Notes: a model not told the origin generated them from the sequence alone. 46,499 nt of DNA from an uncultured Candidatus Saccharibacteria bacterium (GCA_964601305.1 CAZRMW010000006.1:1-46499); one strand, 5' to 3'. Shown: positions 1,912 to 31,195, numbered from the stretch's first letter. Translations and numbers: made by a program.

Positions 1912-2080
1912 TCAAACATTATACAAGAACCTATATGGATTTTTATATAATTAAACTTTTTTTTGACAGATATTGACTTTTATTGTTTTATTTGTTAGAC
2001 TTCACTTAGACTAATTGAAGACGAATAACAATTAAAGCCACGCCGCAAACTTTGTATGCAGGCGGGCAGGGAGGTGTATT

Positions 2081-2596
2081 TTGAAAACAGGGATAGTTGT
2101 ATTTGCGTTTGGTACGCCAGCGGAGATACCACCGAACAAAGCTCTTGCTATATCGGCAAGCAACGAAGCAAGAAGGTACGGCTTGGAAATTTTTACACAG
2201 GTAGATATTAAACCCTGGGAAGGAATTCTCTGTACCTACATCACCGAAAAAGAGGGGGAGCCACCGCCCACATGGCGCATCGCCAAATGGGCAGTAGAGC
2301 AAGCCATCAAGAAAGGGCTCAACAAGCTGTGGGTCTTCGCCGCAGCTCCTCACCGCTGGCGCTGTGTAAGGGACCTAAAAATGGCGATCAAGGAAGCCGG
2401 TATGGAAGAAAGAATTTCTATCAAAGTTTGGGAGCCTGACAAAAAACGGTCTCCCAACAAATACTGGTTTTCAGACAAATCCACCCAGCCACGCACCCAA
2501 TCGTGGCTGAAGTGGTGGATTCCACGGGAATTTCTTTTGAAATACTCACCACTGCGCATTTTTTTCCTTTACAAAATGATCCCGGGAAACAACTAG
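2081..2596 (+). CDS. Hypothetical protein, 171 aa, in a GC-rich (about 50%) segment. It probably starts at TTG with a GGGAGGTG RBS.
   Basis: Longest ORF in the 2000-2690 GC-rich block and the only one with an SD sequence. No family was recognised. Confidence 0.4.
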   Translation: MKTGIVVFAFGTPAEIPPNKALAISASNEARRYGLEIFTQVDIKPWEGILCTYITEKEGEPPPTWRIAKWAVEQAIKKGLNKLWVFAAAPHRWRCVRDLKMAIKEAGMEERISIKVWEPDKKRSPNKYWFSDKSTQPRTQSWLKWWIPREFLLKYSPLRIFFLYKMIPGNN

Positions 2597-2613
2597 TTTT
2601 GCCTTGGTACAAC

Positions 2614-2652
2614 AAAACCCCCCTAATCGAGCTTGGCTCGACGGGGGGTTTC
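2614..2652. terminator. Bidirectional hairpin between two convergent genes.
   Basis: aaacccccc...ggggggttt stem enclosing an inner stem tcgagc/gctcga. Confidence 0.45.
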
Positions 2653-2681
2653 GCATTTCGCCTTTCCGGAAAGACGAACGT

Positions 2682-2960
2682 TTATTGAGGTTTTACAGCC
2701 TCTTTTAGAGCCTTTGCTGCTCTAAACTTAGGAACTATAGTTGCCGCAACTTGGATAGGCTCTCCAGTTCTTGGGTTTCTTGCAGTTCTAGCAGCTCTGT
2801 CTTTTACAGAGAAAATACCAAAACCTGCAATAGAAACTTCGCCTCCTCCTTTTAGCTCGTCAACAATTCCTCCGAAAATTCCTTCAACAACTCTTTCAGC
2901 GTCAGCTTTACTGCCGCCAGTTATTTCAGCAACTTTCTCAACCATTGATGCTTTGTTCAT
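2682..2960 (-). CDS. hup: DNA-binding protein HU.
   Basis: MNKASMVEKVAE...GFGIFSVKDRAARTARNPRTGEPIQV matches the canonical HU arm. Confidence 0.9.
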   Translation of the reverse strand: MNKASMVEKVAEITGGSKADAERVVEGIFGGIVDELKGGGEVSIAGFGIFSVKDRAARTARNPRTGEPIQVAATIVPKFRAAKALKEAVKPQ

Positions 2961-3093
2961 ATTGAATTAAGTCTTTAGTTTATTACTAATCTCGACACTG
3001 CCTACCGGCAGGCAGGCTTTTAAATAATAATTATATTATATCAGATTTAAAATAGTCAACAATAGCAACACTTACCGGGTGCACCCGGTAGTA

Positions 3094-9640: not shown

Positions 9641-9802
9641 AGTGTCCTCCTTCTTGCCCCGCCCGGCGGGGGTGAGTTTGTTGCGTTTGGTTTGTTTTTT
9701 GGTTGACCTGGTTAACATGTTTATTATATTATCAATTTGCACCTAAAAAAAGAATAGCACAAACTATTTTATATACAATAATATAAGAGAATCAAGATTT
9801 TG

Positions 9803-16540: not shown

Positions 16541-17014
16541 ATGAATCCAGAAAGTGGTTTTTCTTTTCTTTCAGGTAAAACTGATTTTAGTTTTAATAGT
16601 AGAGTAGGAAGCTACAGAACTCCGCCTCATAAACCACCTAATGAATTTCAAAAGTTAAGAAATATTGCCAAAGAGATTGACAATGTAGAAATTTCGATTA
16701 AAACAGAGGATATTATAGCAATTTCAAAAAGAGTAAAAACTTTGTTAAAAGAAACTGATTCAACAACGATTAAACATCGCTTCGAAAGAGTAAAAAAATC
16801 CTCCAAAAATCTTTTAAGAGCCTTCCTGAAATTAAGCTTAAGAAATCGTAAAAACAGAAAAGTAAAAATGCTCGAAGATCTTTCATATGTAGAAAAAGAA
16901 ATAACATCTTGTGAAAATTTGTTAGCCGATATAAAACGTACAAATGAATTGCATCAGTTTGATGTGGAGTCAAGATTTGTAAGAGCGGTAATGTTTCCTG
17001 CACAACAAACATAA
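16541..17014 (+). CDS. Hypothetical protein, 157 aa.
   Basis: Good RBS (ggagaaagggg). A terminator follows. Confidence 0.4.
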   Translation: MNPESGFSFLSGKTDFSFNSRVGSYRTPPHKPPNEFQKLRNIAKEIDNVEISIKTEDIIAISKRVKTLLKETDSTTIKHRFERVKKSSKNLLRAFLKLSLRNRKNRKVKMLEDLSYVEKEITSCENLLADIKRTNELHQFDVESRFVRAVMFPAQQT

Positions 17015-17024
17015 AGAATGGTAG

Positions 17025-17062
17025 CCCCCAAGCATTGTGAATCTTTGCTTGGGGATTTTTTT
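17025..17062 (+). terminator. Rho-independent terminator.
   Basis: ccccaagca...tgcttgggg followed by a T7 run. Confidence 0.65.
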
Positions 17063-17738
17063 ATGGTAAATTATCAAATTTTGCTAGACCACGAATCCAT
17101 CCCTTCAATTTATTAACATCCTTCACTCCATTTATAGATATACGGCATGTACCAAACGGTAATGTCTTTTTTCTTCTTTTTCCTTTACTTGCAGAACTAA
17201 CCTGATAAAGAGTTTTTTCAAATATATCTTCGGGAATCGATGTAATTTTCGACCAATATTTTCTAGCCTCTTTTTCTTTTATATTAGGATGAATTTGTAT
17301 ACCAATTTTTATTCTATCTTCTTTAATTTTCATAATATCTCTAAAGAATTTCATCATTAAGATAATCATTAGGGGGTCAGAATTTACAAAAAATATTTTC
17401 CATCTATCAACCTTAGACCCTTCTGCCCAATGAAGTGCCGAGCCCACTAACAAAAGTTCTCTATCAGAAAGTTTTCCTATGTCCTTCATGGCATTTTCTT
17501 TTTCTTCTTCGGTTTGCTTTGCAATATGCTTTGCTCTCTTTTTATTATATTTTGTTATGTTTTTTGACCAAATTCTTTTATTTTTTGAGCATATATCCTT
17601 CAGAAAATCAGTGGGCCATTTTTCTCTTCTAAACCAAGAGGAAAGGGTGCTTTTTGGAACACCAAGTTTAGTAGAAATTTCGTTATAACTTTTACCAGAA
17701 AGTCTTAAAGAAATAGCTTTTTTCTTATCTTTTCGCAT
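17061..17738 (-). CDS. HTH-domain protein with a LAGLIDADG-like homing-endonuclease-like core. It is free-standing, not inside an intron.
   Basis: N-terminal SYNEISTKLGVPKSTLSSW helix-turn-helix. LLLVGSALHWAEGSK and GTCRISINGVKDV resemble LAGLIDADG half-motifs. Confidence 0.4.
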   Translation of the reverse strand: MRKDKKKAISLRLSGKSYNEISTKLGVPKSTLSSWFRREKWPTDFLKDICSKNKRIWSKNITKYNKKRAKHIAKQTEEEKENAMKDIGKLSDRELLLVGSALHWAEGSKVDRWKIFFVNSDPLMIILMMKFFRDIMKIKEDRIKIGIQIHPNIKEKEARKYWSKITSIPEDIFEKTLYQVSSASKGKRRKKTLPFGTCRISINGVKDVNKLKGWIRGLAKFDNLP

Positions 17739-19053: not shown

Positions 19054-19262
19054 AATCTAATTTTACAACAAAATCACTATAATGCATATTTGGTTAGAAC
19101 CTGTATCAAAAACTCAAAAAGTGTTTGTTTACAACACGAAACCTCTTTTCTCTACACATGACTTCCACTCTCCTCTCATCACACCAGCCATCGTTAGAAC
19201 CTGCTCGCTTTGTTGGCACTCCAACGCTTGAGAGGTGCTTTTCAGTCGCATTTCTACTATTG

Positions 19263-19335
19263 TGCCGCGGAGTGGAATCGAACCACCGACCTTCTCTTTT
19301 TCAGAGAGACGCTGCTACCACTGAGCTACCACGGC
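19263..19335 (-). tRNA. tRNA-Phe (anticodon GAA).
   Basis: Acceptor gccgtgg/ccgcggc, anticodon loop ctgaaaa, T-arm ggtgg-ttcgatt-ccact. The D-stem has 3 bp plus a mismatch. Confidence 0.75.
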
Positions 19336-19355
19336 TCACTTGGACTAAATTAGCT

Positions 19356-19664
19356 TTAGTTCTCAAAAAATGTTTGAAGTTTATCTAGCACACTAGGAGG
19401 TAAGTCTCCTACACCACTGCCAGTTTGCCTTAAAACAGAAAAATCTTCTCTTATTTGCCCTGCTGCTTCAAAGAAGGTCTCCATAAGTGGCTGTATATAA
19501 TAGTAAGCACCTAGTGCCAAGGCTATTATTATTACCCACTTAAAGACCATAAAAAATCGACTTATCTTCTGATTCCTTCTAATCTTCTTTAAGATAGTAG
19601 AAGATTCTTGAGAAATTTCAAGGTTTTGCTTTAATAATTTTTTTATTTCTTTAAAATCATCCAT
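19356..19664 (-). CDS. Small membrane protein, 102 aa.
   Basis: ORF with one central TM helix. Confidence 0.35.
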   Translation of the reverse strand: MDDFKEIKKLLKQNLEISQESSTILKKIRRNQKISRFFMVFKWVIIIALALGAYYYIQPLMETFFEAAGQIREDFSVLRQTGSGVGDLPPSVLDKLQTFFEN

Positions 19665-19738
19665 ACACGTATTATCTCAAATTTTTTACCAATTTACCAC
19701 AACAAAACATCCATTAAGGATGTTCCATTGTTTCGATG

Positions 19739-19812
19739 TGGGCGATGAGGGACTCGAACCCCCGACTTCTTCGGTGTAAACGAAGCGCTCTAGCCAACTG
19801 AGCTAATCGCCC
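19739..19812 (-). tRNA. tRNA-Val (anticodon TAC).
   Basis: gggcgat...tagctcagttggctagagc, anticodon loop tttacac, T-arm ttcgagtcc. Confidence 0.85.
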
Positions 19813-19854
19813 CCACACACAAATATATTATATTAAATTCTCAAAACTCTCTAG

Positions 19855-19926
19855 TCTCCCCGGAGGGAATCGAACCCCCATTTAGGGCTTAGAAGGCCCT
19901 CGTTCTATCCGTTGAACTACAGGGAG
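19855..19926 (-). tRNA. tRNA-Arg (anticodon TCT).
   Basis: Acceptor ctccctg/cggggag, D-stem gttc/gaac, anticodon loop cttctaa, T-arm ttcgatt. Confidence 0.8.
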
Positions 19927-20192
19927 GGGTCTTTTATTACAACTCCTTTAAGCAATAATTCATCAAAAAGATTTTCTTTTTCATTTATTCTAAATGTTGT
20001 TTTTTCATACAAATCTTTTTCAAGCACAACTGCTTCAAAATCAATACTTGCATTTATAGCATCTAGGTCTTTCTTTATCAAACCCAAAGAAACAACATTT
20101 AAAACCAATATTACTACAAAAACCACAAAGAAAGCAACTACTAAAAAATTCCAAGCAAAAATATTATTAAATTTTATTTTTTTAAAATTCAT
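19917..20192 (-). CDS. Small membrane protein, 91 aa. Its 3' end overlaps the tRNA-Arg 5' end by 10 nt.
   Basis: ORF with an N-terminal TM helix. Confidence 0.3.
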   Translation of the reverse strand: MNFKKIKFNNIFAWNFLVVAFFVVFVVILVLNVVSLGLIKKDLDAINASIDFEAVVLEKDLYEKTTFRINEKENLFDELLLKGVVIKDPSL

Positions 20193-20309
20193 CCCGTACG
20201 AAATAGAGAATCAAAGATTCTCGTTTATTAATCTAATAATTTGATTGAACATAATTTTATTTGTTTAATTTTTAGATTATATATTAAAAAGCTAGAATTT
20301 CGTACGGGA

Positions 20310-20855
20310 TTAATCATTTGTTGTAAAGCTCAAAAATTTTAATTCTAAACTTGCTTCCCATCCGTTAATACCCCTATCTCCTTGAAGATAGACTTTATTG
20401 AAGCTAAATTGATAAATGTCGTTTTCCAACATAGAAATCATTTTATAAATATTTCCAAAAGACCCAGTGACTAATAAATCAAACACGGGGCTTTGCCCTA
20501 ATTGGTTTGTAATATTTATTCTGTTTATTTTTATATCCACATCAGCCTGACTGGCAAGCCACTCAACTCTTTTTATTAAATCTATTATGTTTTCTTCGTT
20601 TAAAAATATCTTCTTTATCTTTTTTCTATTTTCTTCAGTCTTCAGTCTTTCTTTGTTTGTTTTCCTTATATTTTCTATTTTGTTTTCATAAAAAGCAAGA
20701 TCTTTTTTGATTGAATCAAATATAGTTTTTTGAGAACTAAATTTTTTAAAAGAAAAATACACGCCAAAAATTAATGCCAAGTTTATAAGAACTACCGCCA
20801 CAACACTTACTATAAATTTTGTTTTTTCGTTGCTTATTTTCATATTAAAACTCAA
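20310..20855 (-). CDS. pilO: PilO-like type IV pilus assembly protein.
   Basis: Single N-terminal TM helix plus coiled coil. It sits downstream of and overlapping pilN, which is the conserved operon position. Confidence 0.5.
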   Translation of the reverse strand: MSFNMKISNEKTKFIVSVVAVVLINLALIFGVYFSFKKFSSQKTIFDSIKKDLAFYENKIENIRKTNKERLKTEENRKKIKKIFLNEENIIDLIKRVEWLASQADVDIKINRINITNQLGQSPVFDLLVTGSFGNIYKMISMLENDIYQFSFNKVYLQGDRGINGWEASLELKFLSFTTND

Positions 20856-21384
20856 TGGTAATTGAAAAATCTAAATTTCTTTCTTTAAGAAGATTTGAGA
20901 CTGGAGATTCTATCGATTCAAAATATTCTTTTTTCCTTAATTTGTCGAGAAAAGAAACAAAAACATCTCTCGTCTGAGCCGTGCCTATTATCAACATTCT
21001 AGCTGAATCGTTTTTGTTTGGTCCATCAAAAAGCATCTTTTTGACTTTGATAGAGCTTGGTACATTTACTAAAACATTGTTAATTTTTTCTGAAGCTAAA
21101 ACCAACTTTTTCTCATTTTTATTGAATTCTTTTAATAAATTATTCAGCCCCTTTGTTTCTTTCTCAAAAAAAACTAGGCCCTTTTTTTCTGCGAGCTTTT
21201 TTGTAGAAAAAAGCTGATCGTCAATATTCTCTACAGATGAATTTATAAAAAAATAAGAAACAAACGAAAAAATTATTTGAACGCACAGTAAAAAAGAAAT
21301 AGCTATGCCAAAGACAACAAAAAACCTCCTAAAAAACTCCTTTTTTGTCTTTTTTTGTCTTTCTCTTGGGATCAAATTTGCCAT
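20845..21384 (-). CDS. pilN: PilN-like type IV pilus assembly protein.
   Basis: Bitopic protein immediately after pilM. Confidence 0.5.
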   Translation of the reverse strand: MANLIPRERQKKTKKEFFRRFFVVFGIAISFLLCVQIIFSFVSYFFINSSVENIDDQLFSTKKLAEKKGLVFFEKETKGLNNLLKEFNKNEKKLVLASEKINNVLVNVPSSIKVKKMLFDGPNKNDSARMLIIGTAQTRDVFVSFLDKLRKKEYFESIESPVSNLLKERNLDFSITIEF

Positions 21385-21390
21385 AAAAGA

Positions 21391-22479
21391 TTATTTAAAA
21401 TTTCTTAATGCTAAGCCTATTGCAGTAGGGAAAGATAAAGATTCTCTGTGTTTTATTTCTGGAATATATTTATCAAACGAAAAAATATTTGTCCAAACAT
21501 TTGCAATCTCAATTGGAGTATTTAAACCATAAGACAAATATTCCACCAAACCTCTCATATTAGAATCTCCTCCACAAAGAATAATTTTTTTTATTTTTTT
21601 ATTTTTAAAACCCTGTTCATTAGAATAGCTCTCCCAATAATCCATTACTTGTTTTATTTCATCTTTTATAACAGATATCACTGGGAAAATAGCATTTAAA
21701 ACTGCGTCTCCTTCCGTCTTTTGTAAAACTGTTTGATACTTTATTTTTTCTGCTTCAAAAACACTTATATTTAGATTTTTAGAAATTGCATTATCTATAT
21801 GTCCGCCTGCCACGTTTACTGTAGAGCCAAATTTTACCACTCCGTCTTCTCCTGCCAAAAAACTTGTACGTGTTTTACCAAAATCCACCACCACAACTGC
21901 ATCTTTTTGTTTTTCATTAACTACAGATCTAAAAATCGAATGATTTTCAAGTTCAAAAACAACAGGAAAAAATCCTGCTTTCTCAAAAATTTCTAAATAG
22001 CTTTCAGTAATTTTTTTGGGAAAAGCGCTTAAAACAACTTCTAAAAATTCTCCATTACTTGCCCCGCTCGGCGGGGTTGAATTTACGACTTCAAAATCGT
22101 AAACGACATCTTCTGGAGAAAAAGGTATTAATTCTTCTAGTTGCAATTCTATACTGCTTCTAACTTTGGATAAATCCATTAAAGGAAGTTTAACAACTTT
22201 TATAAAAGCCTTTTCCTCTGGTAAAGAAGCTGCTATGTATTTATTTCCAGTTTCTTCTAAAATTATTTTTAGACTCTTAATAAGAGTTTCTTTGTCTCTT
22301 ATCTCTCCTTTTTCTATAGCGCTTTTTTCTATTTTTTTGCTTCCAAAATTTTTAAGCCTTGTTCCCCATGGACTGTTTTCTAATTCAATATATTTTATGC
22401 TTTTACCAGAAACATCCACTCCAAGAAGTGGGAGTCTTAAATAATCCGGCATAGGAAACAATTTAGAAAAACTTTTCAT
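21391..22479 (-). CDS. pilM: PilM (actin-like type IV pilus assembly ATPase). The start is trimmed to MKSFSK at 22479. It carries an in-frame GC-palindrome insertion (encoding PPSGAS).
   Basis: LLGVDVSGKSIKYIEL and an actin/FtsA fold pattern. A TATAAT box lies 6 nt before the ATG. Confidence 0.75.
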   Translation of the reverse strand: MKSFSKLFPMPDYLRLPLLGVDVSGKSIKYIELENSPWGTRLKNFGSKKIEKSAIEKGEIRDKETLIKSLKIILEETGNKYIAASLPEEKAFIKVVKLPLMDLSKVRSSIELQLEELIPFSPEDVVYDFEVVNSTPPSGASNGEFLEVVLSAFPKKITESYLEIFEKAGFFPVVFELENHSIFRSVVNEKQKDAVVVVDFGKTRTSFLAGEDGVVKFGSTVNVAGGHIDNAISKNLNISVFEAEKIKYQTVLQKTEGDAVLNAIFPVISVIKDEIKQVMDYWESYSNEQGFKNKKIKKIILCGGDSNMRGLVEYLSYGLNTPIEIANVWTNIFSFDKYIPEIKHRESLSFPTAIGLALRNFK

Positions 22480-22544
22480 ACTATTATTATACAACAATAA
22501 TGACCACCCTTGAATAAAAAACACTCTTTGTTATATTTAATAAT

Positions 22545-22946
22545 ATGCTAAGTATTTTCCCAGAACTTTTATCTTACAGCCAAGTGGCGCCATTTATATT
22601 TAGGGTGGTTTTAGCTCTTATTTTTATCGGTACTGGCTACTCAAAACTTTTCAAAGACTTCCAGCAAACTTCTTCTTTTTTTGAATCATTAAAAATAAAG
22701 CCAGGAAAATTTTGGGCAGTTTTTGTTGGAATAGCTGAGTTTGTTTCTGGAGTGCTTCTTCTTGTTGGTTTTCTTACGCAAATTGCCGCACTTTTAATTG
22801 CTATAATTATGTTTGTGGCTATTATAACAGCCAAGAGAGATGAAGGATTTGTGGGTGGGTATGATTTTGATCTTTTAATTTTAGTAGTAGCATTGTCTTT
22901 GTTGGTACTAGGCCCGGGAATATTTTCCATAGACTTACCTTTGTAA
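22545..22946 (+). CDS. DoxX-family membrane protein.
   Basis: Four TM helices with a DoxX-like sequence pattern. Confidence 0.5.
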   Translation: MLSIFPELLSYSQVAPFIFRVVLALIFIGTGYSKLFKDFQQTSSFFESLKIKPGKFWAVFVGIAEFVSGVLLLVGFLTQIAALLIAIIMFVAIITAKRDEGFVGGYDFDLLILVVALSLLVLGPGIFSIDLPL

Positions 22947-22951
22947 AAAAA

Positions 22952-23029
22952 GCCTTCATAGCTCAATTGCCCCGCCGAGCGGGGTAAAGTAGAGCAGCTT
23001 GCCCCGCTCGGCGGGGCGACCTCTTAAGC
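22952..23029 (+). pseudogene. Orphan 5' half of tRNA-Lys (positions 1 to about 38, up to the anticodon loop). It is split by two copies of the GC-rich palindromic repeat.
   Basis: gccttcatagctcaattg + [ccccgccgagcggggtaaa] + gtagagcagct + [tgccccgctcggcggggcga] + cctcttaag. The intact tRNA-Lys at 23277 reads gcctccatagctcaattggtagagcagctccctcttaagg. Outside the inserts there is one mismatch. Confidence 0.8.
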
Positions 23030-23032
23030 AAA

Positions 23033-23272
23033 ATGTATTACACATATATAATAAAAAGCATCGAACACAAATCTTTTTATGTAGGGATAACAAATAATCC
23101 AGAAAAAAGACTGAGAGAACACAATTCTGGCAAGGTTGAGAGTACCAGAACAAAGAAACCTTGGATATTATGGCACATTAGAAAATCAAAAAATTCAAAA
23201 GAAGCGAGAAAAGAAGAAATTTATTTAAAAAAGAAAGACAAAGAGTTCAAAGAAAAATTAAAAAATATTTAA
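23033..23272 (+). CDS. GIY-YIG nuclease-domain protein, paralogous to the one at 176..433.
   Basis: MYYTYIIKSIEHKSFYVGITNNPEKRLREHNSG. Its ATG lies 3 nt after the end of the tRNA-Lys fragment. Confidence 0.8.
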   Translation: MYYTYIIKSIEHKSFYVGITNNPEKRLREHNSGKVESTRTKKPWILWHIRKSKNSKEARKEEIYLKKKDKEFKEKLKNI

Positions 23273-23276
23273 ACAT

Positions 23277-23349
23277 GCCTCCATAGCTCAATTGGTAGAG
23301 CAGCTCCCTCTTAAGGAGTTGGTTCCAGGTTCGAGTCCTGGTGGGGGTA
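23277..23349 (+). tRNA. tRNA-Lys (anticodon CTT).
   Basis: Acceptor gcctcca/tgggggt (two G-U pairs), D-arm agctcaattggtagagc, anticodon loop ctcttaa, T-arm ccagg-ttcgagt-cctgg. Confidence 0.85.
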
Positions 23350-23351
23350 CA

Positions 23352-23551
23352 AAACAGTTTGGCCCCGATGCGTGGCATTGGGGTTTTACTGTTTTGCAGT
23401 TTCAACAGGACGAGAACCGAGGGCTGGCGAAGCGAGCTCCGATGTTACATCGGAGCGACAGCCCGAGTGGGGGTCGAGGGAGTGAGATATTTTTGGAATG
23501 TAATGAACAAAAATATCCACGAGAGTGACCGAGTCCTGGTGGGGGGTACAC
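23352..23551 (+). other. GC-rich structured segment of about 180 nt. It ends in a 21-nt direct repeat of the tRNA-Lys 3' end (cgagtcctggtggggggtaca). Candidate att-site scar and/or small ncRNA.
   Basis: Nested stems read directly, including gctccgatg/catcggagc, gggctg/cagccc and ggcccc/ggggtt. The repeat copies are at 23332-23351 and 23531-23551. Confidence 0.5.
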
Positions 23552-23671
23552 TTCAAATTTTAGCTTGTCAAAACACTTGACCTGCTTTTTTGTATATGTT
23601 AAAAATACCTAGACTAGAAACTTAACCCGTTCGCCTTAGGCGAACAGAACCTTGAAAAGGAGACTGTTGTT

Positions 23672-24298
23672 ATGAATGAATGGTGGATTACCTTAACACA
23701 AATTCAAAAAATGTTTTGGGGAATAGCTATTTTTTCCTCAATATTTTTTACAATTCAAATGATTCTTACTTTTGTTGGCCTTGATGGCCACGGTGATACT
23801 GATTTTGGACATGGTTTTGAAACAGACGGACATACCGGAGATACCCACAGTGATTCAGGTGATGAACATGGACACGATGATGGAAACAGATCTTTTACTT
23901 TTATGGGTTATTTTACCGTAAGAAATCTGGTTGCTTTTTTCCTTGGTTTTTCTTGGGGTGGACTTACTTATATAGACAATGGATTATCAAATGCATGGTC
24001 AATTATTTTGGCCGTGCTTACAGGACTGTTGTTTTCTATTATTATCATGGCCTTATTGAAGGTTTTGTCTACGCTTAAAAATGATGGAACGATGTCACTA
24101 AAAAATGCCATTGGTAAAGAAGGAATTGTCTCAATTCGTATTCCTGCCAACATGGATAAGGCCGGAAAGATCAGTATTTCTTTTCAGAACAGACTGACCG
24201 AACTTGACTCCGTCACGAAAGGAGAGGAAATAAGAAGGGGTCAAAAAATCAAAGTTATAGGAATTTCTGGAACACGACTTCTCGTAGATAAAATTTAG
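23672..24298 (+). CDS. NfeD-like membrane protein (YqiJ/YuaF type). It has an N-terminal TM helix, a His/Asp-rich loop and a C-terminal OB-fold.
   Basis: C-terminal GKEGIVSIRIPANMDKAGKISISFQNRLTELDSVTKGEEIRRGQKIKVIGISGTRLLV matches the NfeD beta-barrel. AAGGAG RBS upstream. About 50% GC. Confidence 0.7.
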   Translation: MNEWWITLTQIQKMFWGIAIFSSIFFTIQMILTFVGLDGHGDTDFGHGFETDGHTGDTHSDSGDEHGHDDGNRSFTFMGYFTVRNLVAFFLGFSWGGLTYIDNGLSNAWSIILAVLTGLLFSIIIMALLKVLSTLKNDGTMSLKNAIGKEGIVSIRIPANMDKAGKISISFQNRLTELDSVTKGEEIRRGQKIKVIGISGTRLLVDKI

Positions 24299-24342
24299 TC
24301 CTACAAAACAATCACAACAAACCACAACAAAGGAGTTAAACC

Positions 24343-25767
24343 ATGACAACAATAATCATAATCTCCGTCCTAGCAGTACTTGTTTTTGGAACCCTTATCG
24401 CGGCGATGTCCCGCTACAAAAGGTGTCCCGCCGACAAAATCCTGGTCATTTTCGGGAAAGTCGGTAAAGGGCTAACCTCAAAATGTGTTCATGGAGGAGC
24501 GGCCTTCATCTGGCCGTTGATTCAAAACTTCAAGTTTCTTGAATTGACACCCATGACTATCGACATTGACCTTCAAAACGCGCTTTCCAAGCAGAATATC
24601 CGGGTTAATGTGCCGTCTCGTTTTACCATTGGTATTTCTACCGAACCTGACATTATGGCAACAGCAGCCGAAAGACTGTTGAGCATGTCTACCGATCAAA
24701 TCGAAGAAAATGCAAGAGACATCATCTTCGGCCAACTCCGAGCGACGATTGCGACGATGGACATCGAGGAAATCAATGCCGATCGAGAACGCTTCGAGGA
24801 GCAGGTGATGAACAATGTTGAGACTGAGCTCAAGAAAATCGGCCTCAAACTCATCAATGTAAACATCACCGACATCACCGACGAATCCGGCTACATCGAA
24901 GCTCTGGGTAAAAAAGCTGCTGCTGAGGCCATCAACCAGGCCAAAATCGAAGTGGCTCAGCAAGACAAAATCGGAGCAGTCGGATCAGCTGAAGCCGACA
25001 AGGAACAGCGCATCAAAGTCGCAGACGCTGATGCCAAAGCAGTCAGTGGTGAAAACACGGCTAAAGTGGAGATTGCCAACTCCAATGCTTCGAGGCGTGA
25101 GGCAGAAGCGGAAGCCAGCAAAAAAGCCGTTTCCGCTGAAAAGACAAAAGAAGCGGAAGCTCTCAAAGATGCCTATGTCGCTGAGCAAAGGGCAGAGGAA
25201 CAACGCAAAAAACGTGATCAAATCACCCAAGAAATCAACGTGGTCGTGCCTGCCGATGTAGAACGGCAAAAGATCGAAAAAGAAGCCGATGCTGAGAAGG
25301 CCAAACGCACCAAAGAAGGTGAAGGTAAGGGTGCCGCCATCGAAAAAGAGATGGAAGGGCAGGCTGCCGGAAATCTTGCCATCCTGGCAAAAAAAGCTGA
25401 AGGCCTTAAACTGATCGTGGATGCCGCCGGTGGAAATCCCGACAAGGCAGCCATGTTGCTTATCGTAGAGCAACTCCCTGCAATCGTGACAGCCCAGGCC
25501 AAGGCCATCAGTGGAGTTCAGTTCGATAAGGTGGTGGTTATGGACACCGGATCTGATAACGGTGCGACAACCACGGCCAACTGGCTGTCTGGTTTAACCA
25601 AGGTTTTACCCGGCTTGCACGAAATGGCCAGTATGGCAGGGGTGCAGTTGCCATCGGCTCTCGGTGAATCCCTAGTCGACCCAATGAAAGACAAACCCAA
25701 ACCCCCAAAAACCAATGCAGGAGAGGGTGAAGATAAAGGGGCAACCGAACCTCCGGAAGCCGAATAA
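24343..25767 (+). CDS. Flotillin / SPFH (band-7) family protein (FloT/YqiK-like).
   Basis: N-terminal TM helix, SPFH domain, a long Ala/Glu/Lys coiled-coil repeat region and a flotillin C-terminus. It forms an operon with nfeD. Confidence 0.8.
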   Translation: MTTIIIISVLAVLVFGTLIAAMSRYKRCPADKILVIFGKVGKGLTSKCVHGGAAFIWPLIQNFKFLELTPMTIDIDLQNALSKQNIRVNVPSRFTIGISTEPDIMATAAERLLSMSTDQIEENARDIIFGQLRATIATMDIEEINADRERFEEQVMNNVETELKKIGLKLINVNITDITDESGYIEALGKKAAAEAINQAKIEVAQQDKIGAVGSAEADKEQRIKVADADAKAVSGENTAKVEIANSNASRREAEAEASKKAVSAEKTKEAEALKDAYVAEQRAEEQRKKRDQITQEINVVVPADVERQKIEKEADAEKAKRTKEGEGKGAAIEKEMEGQAAGNLAILAKKAEGLKLIVDAAGGNPDKAAMLLIVEQLPAIVTAQAKAISGVQFDKVVVMDTGSDNGATTTANWLSGLTKVLPGLHEMASMAGVQLPSALGESLVDPMKDKPKPPKTNAGEGEDKGATEPPEAE

Positions 25768-25801
25768 AAACCTCTGGGCTTAACAACCCAACGAACCAAA
25801 T

Positions 25802-25830
25802 GCCCGGTGCATCACGCGCCGGGCATTTTT
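25802..25830 (+). terminator. Rho-independent terminator that closes the GC-rich islet.
   Basis: gcccgg...ccgggc followed by attttt and cttttt. Confidence 0.6.
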
Positions 25831-25868
25831 CTTTTTATAATATACACTATGATGTACACTAAAAATTA

Positions 25869-26378
25869 ATGAAAAAAGAAATATTTTTAATACTCCACAA
25901 TATACGAAGCTTGCACAATGTAGGCTCTATTTTTAGAACTGCCGATGGGGCAGGGGTGAGTAAAATATATCTTACCGGATACACGCCAGCACCAATAGAC
26001 ATTTTTGGAAAAACCAGAAAAGAAATCGCCAAAACCGCGCTCGGCGCAGAAAACACAGTTCCTTGGGAAAAACACAGAAATTTAAGTCAATTAATCAAAA
26101 AACTTAAAAATGATCGAAGTCCAACTTCAATCATTGGAGTAGAGCAAGATGAAAAAGCAATAGATTATAGGGAATTTACTCGGTCATCCAGTCATTCGAC
26201 CGGACGAAGTTCCGACCGGGCAGCAAGCTTCGCTTTTGTTTTAGGCAATGAAGTCCGTGGGCTTTCCAAACAGACACTCAAAAAGTGCGACAAAATAATA
26301 GAAATCCCTATGCACGGCAAAAAAGAATCTCTCAACGTCGCCGTCACAGCAGGAATAGTTTTATTTCATATTATCTAA
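25869..26378 (+). CDS. SpoU/TrmH-family RNA 2'-O-methyltransferase. It carries an in-frame GC-rich repeat insertion encoding RSSSHSTGRSSDRAAS.
   Basis: C-terminal VLGNEVRGLS...IPMHGKKESLNVAVTAGIVLF is the SpoU knot motif. Confidence 0.8.
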   Translation: MKKEIFLILHNIRSLHNVGSIFRTADGAGVSKIYLTGYTPAPIDIFGKTRKEIAKTALGAENTVPWEKHRNLSQLIKKLKNDRSPTSIIGVEQDEKAIDYREFTRSSSHSTGRSSDRAASFAFVLGNEVRGLSKQTLKKCDKIIEIPMHGKKESLNVAVTAGIVLFHII

Positions 26379-26604: not shown

Positions 26605-27798
26605 ATGATAAAATCATTTTTCTGGAGCAAAAAATGGGCTCTCTGGGCCTGGGGAGGAGCCATCTTCCTTTTAGTTTCTCTATATTTACAAGTGCAAATG
26701 ACTGTAATGTTTAATGAATGGTATAAGGGTTTTTACGACATACTACAAGGATCAGACAATGGCAAGTATGTATTAAGTGATTTTTGGTCAGCAATAATTG
26801 CATGGTGCCATATAGCCTATAAATACATTCTTCTGTCAGCATTTACTGCATATTTCACTCGGCTTTATGCTTTTACTTGGCGAGAAGCAATGACCTTTAA
26901 CTATCTTCCAAGATGGAGATATGTGGAAGAACAAATAGAAGGTGCTGCCCAGCGTATTCAGCAAGACACCGAAAGATTTGCTAGAATTGTGGAAACTTTA
27001 GGTTTGCAAATAGTACGCGCAACAATGACACTCATTGCTTTCCTGCCAATCTTATGGAACTACAGCAACAAAGTGGAGGCAGATTATATTACTCATGTTC
27101 CTGAAATTCCTATATGGATACTCGGTATCCTTTGCTTGTTTTTTCTTTTTGTTTTAAGCAAAACAAGTAAAAATCTACCTCAACATTTAAAAGATCTTAA
27201 AACTACTCTTATTATTCTGCTAAAATCCCCTGTCACTCAAATACTGCTATTTATATTTATGCTCATTTGGATAGGACTCAATGCTGGTTCTTTTGTTGAA
27301 GGGTCTTTGGTTTGGGTGTCACTAATAGTTAGTGTCGGGGGTATGTATCTTTCGTGGATTATTGGATACTATCTACCCAAATTAGAGTACAATAATCAGG
27401 TTGTGGAAGCTGCTTATCGACAGAATTTAGAACTCGTTTCTACAAACAAAGCTCCTTACATTTTTTCAAAGTTTGTTGAATTATTTACTGGAGTCAGAAT
27501 TAATTATCGCAGACTTTATTTGCATTATGGATATTTTGACTTATGGGTATACAGCTATGATGTAGGAATGAGCCTTGTGCCTTTCCTGGTAATGGCTCCA
27601 GGATTATTTACCGGAATGATTTCTCTAGGAATGCTGATGCAAATATCGAATGCTTTCAATAAAGTCCATGCTGGCTTTTCATTGTTCATCCACAGATGGA
27701 CCACCATCACTGAACTAAGAAGTATCTGGAAACGACTTCACGAATTTGAAGCAAATTTGGATAAATACCAACCAAAAGAAGAGTCAACTCAAAAATAA
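26605..27798 (+). CDS. SbmA/BacA-family inner-membrane transporter.
   Basis: EGAAQRIQQDTERFARIVETLGLQIVRATMTLIAFLPIL closely parallels the E. coli SbmA core. Confidence 0.7.
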   Translation: MIKSFFWSKKWALWAWGGAIFLLVSLYLQVQMTVMFNEWYKGFYDILQGSDNGKYVLSDFWSAIIAWCHIAYKYILLSAFTAYFTRLYAFTWREAMTFNYLPRWRYVEEQIEGAAQRIQQDTERFARIVETLGLQIVRATMTLIAFLPILWNYSNKVEADYITHVPEIPIWILGILCLFFLFVLSKTSKNLPQHLKDLKTTLIILLKSPVTQILLFIFMLIWIGLNAGSFVEGSLVWVSLIVSVGGMYLSWIIGYYLPKLEYNNQVVEAAYRQNLELVSTNKAPYIFSKFVELFTGVRINYRRLYLHYGYFDLWVYSYDVGMSLVPFLVMAPGLFTGMISLGMLMQISNAFNKVHAGFSLFIHRWTTITELRSIWKRLHEFEANLDKYQPKEESTQK

Positions 27799-28778: not shown

Positions 28779-29699
28779 CTACTTTTGATGGACAGGGCAA
28801 AAAAATGTAGAACGACCGTTTTTCATAATTCTTTTTATTTTTCCTCCATCTTTTTTGCCACATTTTTGCCCCTCTTTTTGATAAACTTTATGAAAATTTT
28901 GATACCCTCCTTTTTTACCAAAAGCGTCCCTATAATCTACTATAGAATCTCCACGAAGTTTCACTCCTTGTTTCAAAATTTTTTTAATAGCTTTAAAAAT
29001 TTTTTCTAATTCTTTTTCGTTTAAATCTTGTAGTTTTTTAAAAGGGTAGACTCCTGCCTCCCACAAAATATCGTTTGAATAAATATTTCCTATACCAGAA
29101 ATTAATTCTTGCTTCATTAAAACATTTTTTACTTCACCTTTGCGTCCCTTTAAAATTTCTTTAAATTTTTTAAAAGTAAAATTTTTTTCTAATGGATCTG
29201 GTCCAATATCTTTTATATCTTTTAATTCTCCTAGTTTGTCGGTCTCGCAAATTAACACTTTCGCAAATTTTCTAATGTCTGAAAGCGACAACTGCTTGCC
29301 ATTTGATAAATAAAAAATTAAATGCAAAAATCTATTTTGCAGATCGTCTTTAAGCACTCCTTTTTGTGTAGCTACCCATGGATATTTTCCCTCACCAGTT
29401 TTCTCCCATTTACCATAAAGCATGTGTCCCGTCATTTTTTGATGTATTAAAATAGTTTTGTTTTTGTCTAAACTTATTAAAATATTTTTTCCTACTCTTT
29501 TTACACTTAAAATTTTTTTACTTACGATTTGTTTTTTAAAACTCGCCAGAGTTTTTGGGTTTTTAATAATATTTTTTACGCAGCCCGCCTTGACTCCCCA
29601 TAGGCGAGGCAGGTCGCACCAAACATCCTGAATTTTTAATCCAGGCAAAACTTTATTTAGATCGCTAACTATAGTATGAACTTCTGGAAGCTCCGGCAT
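28779..29699 (-). CDS. fpg: Formamidopyrimidine-DNA glycosylase (Fpg/Nei family).
   Basis: MPELPEV N-terminus (catalytic Pro2) and a C-terminal zinc finger (CGKK...CPVHQ). A TAATAT box sits 6 nt before the ATG. Confidence 0.85.
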   Translation of the reverse strand: MPELPEVHTIVSDLNKVLPGLKIQDVWCDLPRLWGVKAGCVKNIIKNPKTLASFKKQIVSKKILSVKRVGKNILISLDKNKTILIHQKMTGHMLYGKWEKTGEGKYPWVATQKGVLKDDLQNRFLHLIFYLSNGKQLSLSDIRKFAKVLICETDKLGELKDIKDIGPDPLEKNFTFKKFKEILKGRKGEVKNVLMKQELISGIGNIYSNDILWEAGVYPFKKLQDLNEKELEKIFKAIKKILKQGVKLRGDSIVDYRDAFGKKGGYQNFHKVYQKEGQKCGKKDGGKIKRIMKNGRSTFFCPVHQK

Positions 29700-29850
29700 G
29701 GTTAAATATTAGACTCTAATCTTCCCCAAATCAAGCCAATAAAAACATTCCAACATTCTATAGAATGTTGGAATGTTTAGTGTGCAATTTACATGCAAAC
29801 AAAAAAGCCCCGGCTATTGCCGAAGGCTTTTAAAATTCAATCAACTTTTT

Positions 29851-29993
29851 CATCCCAAGAATAATAAACCTAGAACGTACAACAAACACTGGATAGGTCC
29901 ACCGTAAACATACATTTTGCTCAGAGCACTTCTTTTTTCTTTTTTTGTGCTCTGCCTCTTTCTTCCACATTCCTCACATACATAGGTGCGCAT
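29851..29993 (-). CDS. Possible small protein of about 47 aa (MRTYVCEECGRK...LLFLG), with an N-terminal CxxC and a C-terminal hydrophobic tail. Coordinates are within about 1 nt.
   Basis: AAAGGGGA RBS. It lies between two copies of the repeated terminator module. It is not in the ORF track because it is under 60 aa. Confidence 0.25.
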
Positions 29994-30072
29994 ATTATTC
30001 CCCTTTTTTTAAGATCCAAATTTAATAATATAAAAGCATTTTTATAATACTTCGTCAATGTGTTTCATTTGC

Positions 30073-30104
30073 AAACAAAAAAGCCCCGGCTATTGCCGAA
30101 GGCT
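30073..30104 (-). terminator. Terminator for the PDZ gene. One of two identical 46-nt copies; the other is at 29794-29839.
   Basis: aaagccccggctattgccgaaggcttt hairpin with a T-run on the minus strand. Confidence 0.55.
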
Positions 30105-30116
30105 TTTAAAATTCAA

Positions 30117-30554
30117 CTATTTTTTTATTTCTATATTTTTAGGCCGCACACCAAGCTTCACTTTTAAATTTATTTTTTCACCATCTCTAAAGATAGTTAG
30201 TTCAACAATATCTCCTGGTTTGATATTATTCTTTTTAAAAACTTTTTTTAAGTTTGTTTCTGGTTTAAGGCCAAATTCATCCCAATCACTTCCAATAAAA
30301 ATACCATAAATTATATCCCCTCGTTTCAAACCAGCCTTCTCAGCAGCAGATCCTTTTACGACACTCTTAACATAAGGCCTTGAACTATATTCAACCCCCA
30401 AAAAGGCTTTTGGAGAAGTTATTTCTTTTTCTGAAAAATAATAACGCGGAATACCGAAAATAACAAAAAATACTATAACTAAAAGTAAGCAAAACAAAAT
30501 TATTTTTCCAGCAGAGGACATTCCTTCAAACTTTGTTGTCATTTTTTCCTCCAA
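30117..30554 (-). CDS. PDZ-domain membrane protein.
   Basis: N-terminal TM helix plus a PDZ domain (GLKRGDIIYGI...GDIVELTIFRDGEKINLKVKLG). Confidence 0.6.
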   Translation of the reverse strand: MEEKMTTKFEGMSSAGKIILFCLLLVIVFFVIFGIPRYYFSEKEITSPKAFLGVEYSSRPYVKSVVKGSAAEKAGLKRGDIIYGIFIGSDWDEFGLKPETNLKKVFKKNNIKPGDIVELTIFRDGEKINLKVKLGVRPKNIEIKK

Positions 30555-30649
30555 GTTTAGTGTTTAGTTTTCAACTTGTCCCGCTCGGCGGGAATTTAAT
30601 GTTATAAAAGCATTTTTGTGATACTTCGTCAAATTGTTTCATTTGTAAA

Positions 30650-30677
30650 CAAAAAAGGCGACTTTTATGAAATCGCC
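30650..30677 (-). terminator. Rho-independent terminator on the minus strand.
   Basis: ggcgatttcataaaagtcgcc followed by tttttt (read on the minus strand). Confidence 0.6.
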
Positions 30678-30727
30678 CTTTCTCATTCTATGAATATTGA
30701 TTCTTCAAATGTTTCACTGTTTCTGTT

Positions 30728-31195
30728 TTACACAAAAGCACCTGAAAAAATAATCATAGAAAAAATCATCAAAAGGATAAAGACCGTAAAAGATTTCGTG
30801 GAGATACCTATTTCCTGCTTACAATCTACCATCTTAAAATATTCGATCGACTTGTTTTTATACAGTCTATTGATATATCCACGAGCATAAACCTTTGATG
30901 CATAATTCACATACGCAAAACTAAACAAAATCCCTGAAATAAAAAGAAAACCAAAACTACGGGCCAAGAAAGTTTTCCCACCTAGCTCGAAATAAATAAA
31001 ACCAGCTAAAACAACTATTAGACCTTTAATAAAAACGCAAAATAAAAAATATTTACTTATTTTGTAATTAATCTTCTTTTTTTCAATTATCAAATCTACT
31101 GTTTTTTTCAAACTCTCAGAAAATTCAACAACATTTGAATCTAAAATTGCAACATAAAACAAAGCCAGTAAACCAATGATAAAATACTCTAGCAT
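30728..31195 (-). CDS. Hypothetical polytopic membrane protein, 155 aa.
   Basis: ORF with four or more TM helices. Confidence 0.4.
   Translation of the reverse strand: MLEYFIIGLLALFYVAILDSNVVEFSESLKKTVDLIIEKKKINYKISKYFLFCVFIKGLIVVLAGFIYFELGGKTFLARSFGFLFISGILFSFAYVNYASKVYARGYINRLYKNKSIEYFKMVDCKQEIGISTKSFTVFILLMIFSMIIFSGAFV

Follow-up and report, generated by a model that had tools for sequence, protein, structure and literature searches.

A probably acquired NfeD-flotillin operon beside an older tRNA-Lys gene mosaic in a Patescibacteria genome

Is an operon that begins shortly after a tRNA gene, next to a second copy of the end of that tRNA, necessarily the cargo of a tRNA-integrated island? 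The question is raised by a 46,499-nucleotide (nt) stretch of DNA from an uncultured Candidatus Saccharibacteria bacterium (GCA_964601305.1 CAZRMW010000006.1:1-46499), called the window below, in which an intact tRNA-Lys gene is followed by genes for an NfeD-family membrane protein and a flotillin. A preliminary description had read this part of the window as a GC-rich island with a 20-nt attachment (att) repeat. We read the locus as two unrelated things side by side: an NfeD-flotillin operon, for which horizontal gain of the gene pair is the most likely history (probability about 0.65), and an older tRNA-Lys mosaic. The operon and the tRNA-gene fragments each belong to known kinds. Coordinates are those of the window unless stated otherwise, and the genes, fragments and signals of the locus (22545-26378) are all on the plus strand; no strand is assigned to the palindromes.

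The syntenic comparator was L032 (GCA_042577045.1, 'Patescibacteria group bacterium'), whose valyl-tRNA synthetase (ValRS) is 73% identical to that of the window. L032 is collinear with the window from tRNA-Gly to RuvA. The shared order on the left side is tRNA-Gly, HU, RNase Y, iPGM, TsaD, ValRS, PrsW, HSP20, tRNA-Phe/Val/Arg, PilO/N/M and DoxX (22545-22946 in the window, upstream of the tRNA-Lys locus), and on the right side it is SpoU/TrmH, an LTD-domain protein, Mur ligase and RuvA. With tblastx, window 19251-23357 matched L032 12871-17390, ending at the tRNA-Lys 3' end, and the match restarted at the gene for the SpoU/TrmH-family methyltransferase (trmH, 25869-26378), at window 25857 and L032 17613. 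The interval from tRNA-Lys to trmH is 2.5 kb in the window (23358-25856) and 222 nt in L032. NfeD and flotillin are absent from this site in L032, the closest available relative, and the label 'accessory' given to the operon in the preliminary description holds. The 222 nt of L032 contain a terminator hairpin, then a domain of hairpins whose closing stem is CAGGACTCG...CGAGTCCTG, and a copy of the tRNA 3' end (CGAGTCCTGGTGAGGATACA, L032 17509-17528) that lies 96 nt before the start of trmH, the next gene. The site foreseen as empty is thus empty of the operon, but it keeps the displaced tRNA fragment and the spacer. Since the repeat and spacer are present in the operon-free L032, they are independent of the operon and predate the split of the two lineages. 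This comparison is the decisive point against reading the repeat as an att site, and the operon is a separate lineage-specific indel between the distal tRNA fragment and trmH.

The remaining comparisons bear on the host and on the scope of this result. Proteins that NCBI assigns to Patescibacteria, Paceibacterota, Terrybacteria or Pacebacteria share 62-75% identity with the window's ValRS, and therefore the supposed minimal-genome context is right. We fetched 22 metagenomic loci with the tRNA-Lys core for comparison. Near-identical contigs of the same species (L001, L005-L007 and L030) carry an identical locus and are uninformative on an empty site; the structure of the locus, operon included, was identical in every contig of the species recovered from the sampled metagenomes. 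Other ValRS relatives (L031, L033 and L034) end before the tRNA-Lys locus. The GTDB representative genomes, among which the species and its close relatives are not included, gave no match when scanned with the tRNA-Lys core and then with PilM.

The arrangement of the repeat was considered next to this comparison. The intact tRNA-Lys(CTT) gene lies at 23277-23350 (ARAGORN; Rfam tRNA 68.9 bits), with CCA not encoded. Its last 20 nt reappear 179 nt downstream. Copy 1 (23332-23351, CGAGTCCTGGTGGGGGTACA) covers tRNA positions 56-73 plus 2 nt. Copy 2 (23530-23550, CGAGTCCTGGTGGGGGGTACA) is the best-preserved piece of a decayed partial tRNA-Lys copy and comprises 16 exact nt (CGAGTCCTGGTGGGGG), one extra G and then GTACA (BLAST E 6e-4). 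The direct repeat that had been described is therefore real, although its second copy lies one base to the left of the 23531-23551 first given and has the additional G. Allowing up to 3 mismatches, the 20-mer had no match besides copy 2 in the whole 46.5-kb window, and shuffled sequences gave none. A sensitive search with the whole tRNA found no further tRNA-like fragment to the right of the flotillin terminator (none near 25768-25870). Both copies are upstream of the operon, enclosing 178 non-coding nt, and therefore cannot bracket it. The tRNA-Lys 3'-end repeat is older than the operon, lies outside it, and is part of a separate history of tRNA-gene rearrangement.

Base composition also separates the two parts of the locus. 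GC had been reported to jump to about 50% at the tRNA 3' end and to stay there until the terminator. By segment, we observed GC of 0.55 in the tRNA, 0.51 in the spacer, 0.67 in the distal repeat, 0.36 in the promoter and 5' untranslated region (UTR), 0.37 in NfeD, 0.36 between NfeD and flotillin, 0.50 in flotillin, 0.41 in the terminator region and 0.39 in trmH, in a window of 34.3% GC overall (0.343). There is no plateau of 50%, given that the promoter/UTR, NfeD and the intergenic region reach only 0.36-0.37. The high GC beside the tRNA is tRNA-derived sequence and hairpins, not cargo. GC at third codon positions (GC3) averaged 0.245 +/- 0.053 over the 43 other window genes; NfeD has 0.29 (z +0.9) and flotillin 0.52 (z +5.2). 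In its synonymous-codon fit to host usage, flotillin was the most extreme of 44 genes (z -4.65), while NfeD was ordinary (z -1.1). Atypical composition is restricted to flotillin, NfeD and both intergenic regions being host-like, so that the expected foreign look was found for one gene of the pair and not for the other. The high GC3 of flotillin was not put down to translational selection, as the HU gene has a GC3 of 0.22. Along NfeD, GC3 was observed to climb steadily: it is 0.20-0.22 over the 5' half and 0.34-0.40 over the 3' part, and flotillin follows with 0.42-0.70; this rise inside NfeD may mark a recombination breakpoint within the operon.

The identity of the two genes given in the preliminary description, an NfeD plus SPFH/flotillin operon, is borne out by domain matches and gene order. 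The flotillin-family SPFH protein (24343-25767, 474 amino acids, hydrophobic N-terminus) matches Band_7 PF01145 at 113.6 bits (cut-off 23.6; E 1e-32), and phmmer aligns its residues 48-426 to human flotillin-1/2 (9bq2, 9l3g; E about 1e-26), meaning that the flotillin-type extension is present. It is not a FloT equivalog, scoring 149.3 bits with NCBIfam NF058507 against a 700-bit cut-off. The NfeD-family protein (YqiJ/YuaF-like, 23672-24298, 208 amino acids) is encoded on the same strand directly upstream, with a 44-nt gap, and the same pairing with an SPFH gene was seen in L002, L003 and L004. It has an N-terminal hydrophobic segment, an acidic/His loop, further hydrophobic segments and a probable C-terminal NfeD domain. 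Its own match to Pfam NfeD PF01957 (24.3 bits, E 3.7e-5) is under the 29.1 cut-off; the same family was matched by all of its aligned homologues (15/15, E <= 0.01, best 3e-8). A profile search of the PDB gave no NfeD structure. The His/Asp-rich loop that had been singled out as striking is present at residues 40-70 (23789-23881), but it is no peculiarity: in the alignment, an acidic Asp/Gly/Glu loop follows the first hydrophobic segment and precedes a conserved YFTVRN motif in all NfeD homologues, and the window has an expanded version of it, longer and His-rich, as does the NfeD partner in L002. Metal binding by this loop would be a reasonable guess.

Known NfeD-flotillin operons include yqiJ-yqiK of Escherichia coli and yuaF(nfeD2)-floT of Bacillus subtilis. 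The window operon resembles them in having nfeD 5' of the SPFH/flotillin gene, a probable C-terminal NfeD domain, and a flotillin with an N-terminal hydrophobic anchor and a Band_7 domain. It differs in that its flotillin falls below the FloT equivalog cut-off (149 vs 700 bits), its NfeD acidic loop is expanded and His-rich, its codon usage is foreign in flotillin and not in NfeD, and its host belongs to the Patescibacteria. A sigma-70-like promoter candidate (23577-23606; TTGACC, 18-nt spacer, AAAAAT) precedes the genes; between it and NfeD lie a hairpin in the 5' UTR (23626-23648) and GGAG as the ribosome-binding site. A strong intrinsic terminator (25798-25838), previously placed at 25802-25830, closes the operon, with a hairpin at 25798-25828 (13-bp stem, 8 G-C pairs) and then a T-run. 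With these signals and its ribosome-binding sites, the operon would be self-contained. By homology, the operon would be transcribed from the promoter 3' of the distal tRNA fragment to the terminator at 25798. The flotillin would be anchored in the membrane by its hydrophobic N-terminus and would oligomerise via its SPFH and C-terminal helical regions, with NfeD as a partner touching it through the C-terminal domain. Scaffold and partner may together form an oligomeric microdomain or cage complex on the cytoplasmic membrane.

Where did the pair come from? The flotillins nearest to that of the window outside the species are 62-67% identical. Named matches include Dethiosulfatarculus, Gammaproteobacteria, Deferribacteraceae and one Woesearchaeota archaeon. 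Gene contexts are not Patescibacteria-like in L002 (RND efflux pumps, 52% GC) or in L004 (Tricorn, PD40 and HEAT-repeat proteins), and other matches are on contigs of 3-4.8 Mb. The search for a donor by protein comparison gave none above 67% identity. NfeD is 46% identical to the NfeD partners of the nearest flotillins, vs 47% for its best database matches, and being equally close to the partners of the same flotillins argues that the gene pair shares ancestry. In L004, a low-GC organism, the NfeD-flotillin operon (L004 2-2024; 62% and 46% identical to the window proteins) has a GC3 of 0.33-0.34, so the module can sit at low GC. We found no report of flotillin in Patescibacteria in the literature. 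Since its codon usage is clearly foreign, horizontal acquisition of flotillin is likely. The earlier reading of the NfeD-flotillin pair as a horizontally acquired accessory is reasonable. We infer that the indel was a gain and not a loss, and that the two genes were transferred together. The NfeD-flotillin pair would have arrived as a unit and been inserted between the tRNA-Lys locus and trmH by a non-att mechanism, with donor-like codon usage still present in flotillin and perhaps also in the 3' part of NfeD. The contrast between the two genes and the GC3 gradient could mean either that flotillin and the 3' end of NfeD were replaced later or that amelioration was uneven.

Several observations weigh against horizontal gain of the pair. 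NfeD is host-like though it is the operon partner, which needs an extra assumption such as flotillin replacement or an older mixed history. A single syntenic relative was found, so that loss in L032 is possible, and alignments of the operon's flanks to L032, made to map the insertion junctions, were no better than shuffles (a possible TAAAAAT duplication at the junctions is not claimed). No donor exceeds 67% identity, and most flotillin matches come without an organism name, so that the lack of a Patescibacteria label holds for the named top matches. The promoter is a consensus match only, promoter-type sites in the window being no more numerous than the shuffle expectation, and the functions of NfeD and flotillin are predicted from homology alone. 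If the operon were instead ancestral and deleted in L032, the flotillin GC3 would need a source other than recent transfer, such as gene conversion or an allelic replacement confined to flotillin. NfeD, host-like and rising in GC3 from 0.20 to 0.40 toward flotillin, is what one would see if the second gene of a native operon had been exchanged; the operon of L004 shows that the family can exist at low GC; and at least six indels between window and L032 in 33 kb make losses plausible. However, no Patescibacteria-labelled protein is among the named top flotillin matches, nothing is closer to NfeD than 47%, flotillin is the strongest codon-usage outlier of 44 window genes, and at least flotillin would still have come from outside. 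We regard an ancestral operon as rather unlikely.

The history proposed in the preliminary description is a site-specific integration into the 3' end of tRNA-Lys, in which the 20-mer is the att scar and the NfeD-flotillin pair the cargo, and the integrase has since been lost. The block from T-loop to 3' end, where the repeat begins at tRNA position 56, is a typical identity block for T-loop-type integrases, and an operon absent from L032 with a foreign-looking flotillin is what such an event would bring. Fragments of tRNA genes are a common by-product of integration (PMC9897764), and a variant would take the distal fragment as a secondary attB whose right-hand att later eroded. In tRNA-integrated islands of the Islander type (PMC4383910), one end is marked by the regenerated tRNA and the other by its displaced fragment. 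The window is like such islands in its intact tRNA, its direct 3'-end copy from the T-loop on, and its nearby accessory genes missing in a relative; it is unlike them in that the copies, both 5' of the operon, enclose non-coding sequence and not accessory genes, no integrase is present, and the same copies exist in L032 without accessory genes. The absence of an integrase had been stated before and was borne out within about 10 kb by a Pfam scan of flanking open reading frames (ORFs) and the precomputed domains of the same locus in L030. When viral contigs were searched with the 20-mer for an attP, the only match was one phage tRNA-Arg gene; flotillin relatives were found on no viral contig, and plasmid matches were at most 49% identical. 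No third copy lies beyond the operon, and NfeD, the gene nearest to the repeat, is compositionally host-like. With this geometry, and with repeat and spacer shared by L032, the 20-mer as att and a decayed island are not supported, and we consider the whole scenario very improbable. The combination of a tRNA-end repeat with a GC bump mimics an island and fails the geometric and comparative tests; automatic island callers would err likewise. What horizontal gain of the operon does offer is a modest but clean case of a reduced-genome Patescibacteria member gaining a membrane-scaffold module, with an empty-site comparator, and one useful for asking what role flotillin microdomains have in episymbiont-like cells.

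The tRNA-Lys mosaic that remains has several layers. Directly 3' of the tRNA is a terminator-like hairpin (23352-23395, AAAACAGT...ACTGTTTT; stem 23361-23385 and a T-rich tail), with a hairpin at the same position in L032. It is followed by the spacer proper, a single-copy GC-rich hairpin domain (23396-23529, fold z -6.0). Inside this domain are a T-arm piece, inverted and degenerate (CAGGACGAGAA), a hairpin resembling an anticodon arm (GAGCTCC...GGAGC) and another that is AT-rich; CAGGAC closes the domain by pairing with the GTCCTG in repeat copy 2. In L032 the corresponding domain folds with the same topology (z -9.5). An internal tRNA-like copy in the window spacer scored 20 against 18.9 +/- 3.3 for shuffles, which is not significant alone, and a second tRNA-like copy there is plausible only via the clearer L032 version. 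Rfam gave tRNAs only, both when the entire window was scanned with its gathering thresholds and when 22900-23700 was scanned at E <= 10. The spacer as a tmRNA, a group I intron, or a split or permuted tRNA was dropped, with no ARAGORN or Rfam support and the proximal tRNA complete.

Spacer and distal repeat together (23396-23550) might also be a functional structured RNA or DNA element, co-transcribed with the tRNA or acting beside it. The folds are strong in both lineages and share a topology, a terminator hairpin and then the closing stem CAGGAC.../...GTCCTG around two hairpins, despite diverged interior sequence; this has been kept across a ValRS divergence of 73% identity, and the element is identical in all samples of the species. 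On the other hand, it belongs to no Rfam family even at E up to 10, two lineages are too few for covariation, and the closing stem is tRNA-derived, such that gene conversion with the tRNA could maintain it. The interior hairpin is like a degenerate anticodon arm, which one would expect if a tRNA copy were decaying there; GC hairpins occur all over these genomes, and the position is after a terminator-like hairpin. A functional element thus seems unlikely to us, and a decayed tRNA copy is preferred. The older part of the mosaic (intact tRNA, terminator hairpin and decayed partial copy) would have been in place before the split from L032.

A younger layer lies upstream of the tRNA. A displaced, degenerate 5' half of tRNA-Lys (22952-23028; positions 1-18, 19-29 and 31-39, ending at the anticodon loop CTCTTAAG) was identified with a local score of 34 against the tRNA, vs 16.3 +/- 3.2 for shuffles. 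It begins 6 nt past the DoxX stop codon, where the ancestral tRNA start is expected, and differs from the functional tRNA at position 5 (T vs C). The gap between this fragment and the tRNA is filled almost exactly by a GIY-YIG catalytic-domain ORF of 79 amino acids (23033-23272; Pfam PF01541 E 1.6e-16), the stop codon of which lies 4 nt short of the tRNA. Residues 1-73 of the 79 make up the catalytic domain, and no separate DNA-binding or target-recognition domain was found. At the orthologous tRNA-Lys site, L032 has neither the 5' fragment nor the ORF. The ORF is polymorphic for presence and absence: it is missing at both tRNA-Lys and tRNA-Gly of L032, present at tRNA-Lys in L012 and L014, and absent from the remaining tRNA-Lys loci that we inspected. 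In the lineage of the window, a later insertion of the GIY-YIG ORF would have displaced the 5' half upstream, where it has since been gathering GC palindromes.

Free-standing GIY-YIG homing endonuclease genes at tRNA loci are known, an example being SegB of phage T4 (PMC2330249). In organelles, inserted endonuclease genes leave part of the host gene duplicated (PMC5626475). The window shares with these systems a GIY-YIG ORF set tightly at a tRNA gene, presence and absence between relatives, and a duplicated piece of the target beside the insertion with the functional gene intact. It differs in that the protein has 79 amino acids and the catalytic domain alone, and is known here from sequence only, in that the duplicated piece is a tRNA 5' half, and in that the host is a cellular member of the Patescibacteria. 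We found no report in the literature of GIY-YIG at tRNA genes in the Candidate Phyla Radiation.

A second GIY-YIG ORF was observed at 146-433 (probable start 176), directly 3' of tRNA-Gly (1-73) and 34% identical to the first. It is absent from L032, where tRNA-Gly has only a terminator hairpin. A possible tRNA-Gly 5' fragment (GTGGTAAAAT, 135-144) and a T-arm-like piece (CAATTCCCCC, 449-458) flank this ORF, both weak; the upstream fragment was dropped as a candidate, being a mere 10-nt match (E 0.1).

In L032, the stretch at 16660-17384 was observed to carry an RNaseH-like ORF (PF04308, with its own GC palindrome) and a different tRNA-Lys(CTT), 5' of a disrupted tRNA-Lys of the window type. 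The disrupted gene is without positions 1-7 and has a hairpin in the anticodon stem, and its 3' half is identical to the window tRNA. With an RNaseH-like ORF and a replacement tRNA in L032 and a GIY-YIG ORF in the window, the resident tRNA-Lys was therefore invaded independently in the two lineages, a working copy being kept each time.

The displaced 5' half of the window contains two inverted copies of a 15-nt GC palindrome (CCCCGCCGAGCGGGG; 22970-22984 and 23002-23016), and the pair forms a 19-bp hairpin (z -6.9). The family to which they belong (CCCCGCYSRGCGGGG) was observed in 8-10 copies in 46 kb, against 0.01 expected, with palindromes of about 15 nt each at 9657, 11120, 22062, 22970, 23002, 30579, 37910 and 40383. 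Some are within called ORFs (PilM, TsaD, PolA and an ORF at 40363), and the one in PilM is a 5-residue insertion absent from the PilM orthologs of L032 and L035. Rickettsia palindromic elements are short palindromic repeats found both between genes and in-frame inside protein-coding genes. The window palindromes are like them in being intergenic as well as in-frame, with the PilM copy adding 5 residues; they differ in a unit of 15 nt, GC-rich in a 34% GC genome, in an unrelated lineage, and with mobility that we infer from distribution.

The arrangement upstream of the tRNA recurs in other genomes. L012 and L014 hold the sole GIY-YIG matches among the fetched loci. As in the window, their intact tRNA-Lys is preceded by a GIY-YIG ORF (about 40% identical), and the ORF in turn by a tRNA 5' fragment that carries a GC hairpin; in all three the displaced 5' fragment is located where the ancestral tRNA would have begun. 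In the coordinates of the extracted pieces, with tRNA-Lys on the plus strand, these arrangements span L012 1138-1508 and L014 487-860; there the GC hairpin was observed to replace or interrupt an arm of the tRNA fragment, and the ORF to extend into the start of the tRNA. A 33-nt direct repeat that contains the hairpin TCCCGACGTAGTCGGGG is shared by the flanking pseudo-tRNA pieces of L012, and a similar hairpin takes the place of the anticodon arm of a pseudo-tRNA in L017/L019.

Independently of GIY-YIG, duplications from the T-loop (positions 54-58) to the tRNA 3' end, 48-179 nt downstream and after a GC-hairpin spacer, were found at tRNA-Lys of the window, at tRNA-Lys (1434-1508) and tRNA-Arg (242-314; 13 nt duplicated) of L012, and at tRNA-Arg of L011 (823-897), L009 (235-308) and L029 (405-478), all but the first in extracted-piece coordinates. 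In L009, L011, L012 and L029 the copies are 48-151 nt downstream with non-coding spacers, and in L012 the acceptor 3' strand occurs three or four times in series. Such tiny non-coding intervals with a repeated breakpoint are unlike the usual leavings of decayed prophages. The duplications may have been left by T-loop-specific recombination, may descend from tandem tRNA copies that have since decayed, or may be target duplications made by miniature hairpin elements.

It is possible, though we hold the idea only tentatively, that tRNA genes of Parcubacteria-type Patescibacteria are recurrent targets of two kinds of miniature mobile unit. One kind would be a bare GIY-YIG ORF that enters a tRNA gene, with a full tRNA kept at the right end and a 5' fragment left upstream, as in the window, L012 and L014. 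The other would be a 48-179-nt non-coding GC-hairpin insert flanked by a T-loop-to-3'-end tRNA duplication. If this were true, both kinds of unit together with the in-frame 15-nt GC palindromes would make up an undescribed repertoire of tiny target-restoring elements in reduced genomes, and, if they are mobile, a compact way to invade essential genes without host death. We consider this recurrent architecture of GIY-YIG ORF, tRNA fragment and palindrome a more interesting lead than the operon.

Some features away from the locus were also recorded. An SbmA/BacA-like transporter (26605-27798) and an Fpg-containing block (28779-31195) are absent from the syntenic stretch of L032, so indels are frequent around the locus; L031 carries SbmA and Fpg together elsewhere. 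A local GC peak of 0.456 was seen at 2001-3000, around the HU gene, and no Rfam family was found there. In L035, synteny with the window is lost after PilM, and the contig goes on into a bAvd-like gene and a partial ORF (L035 10404-11699), which is probably a diversity-generating retroelement cassette.

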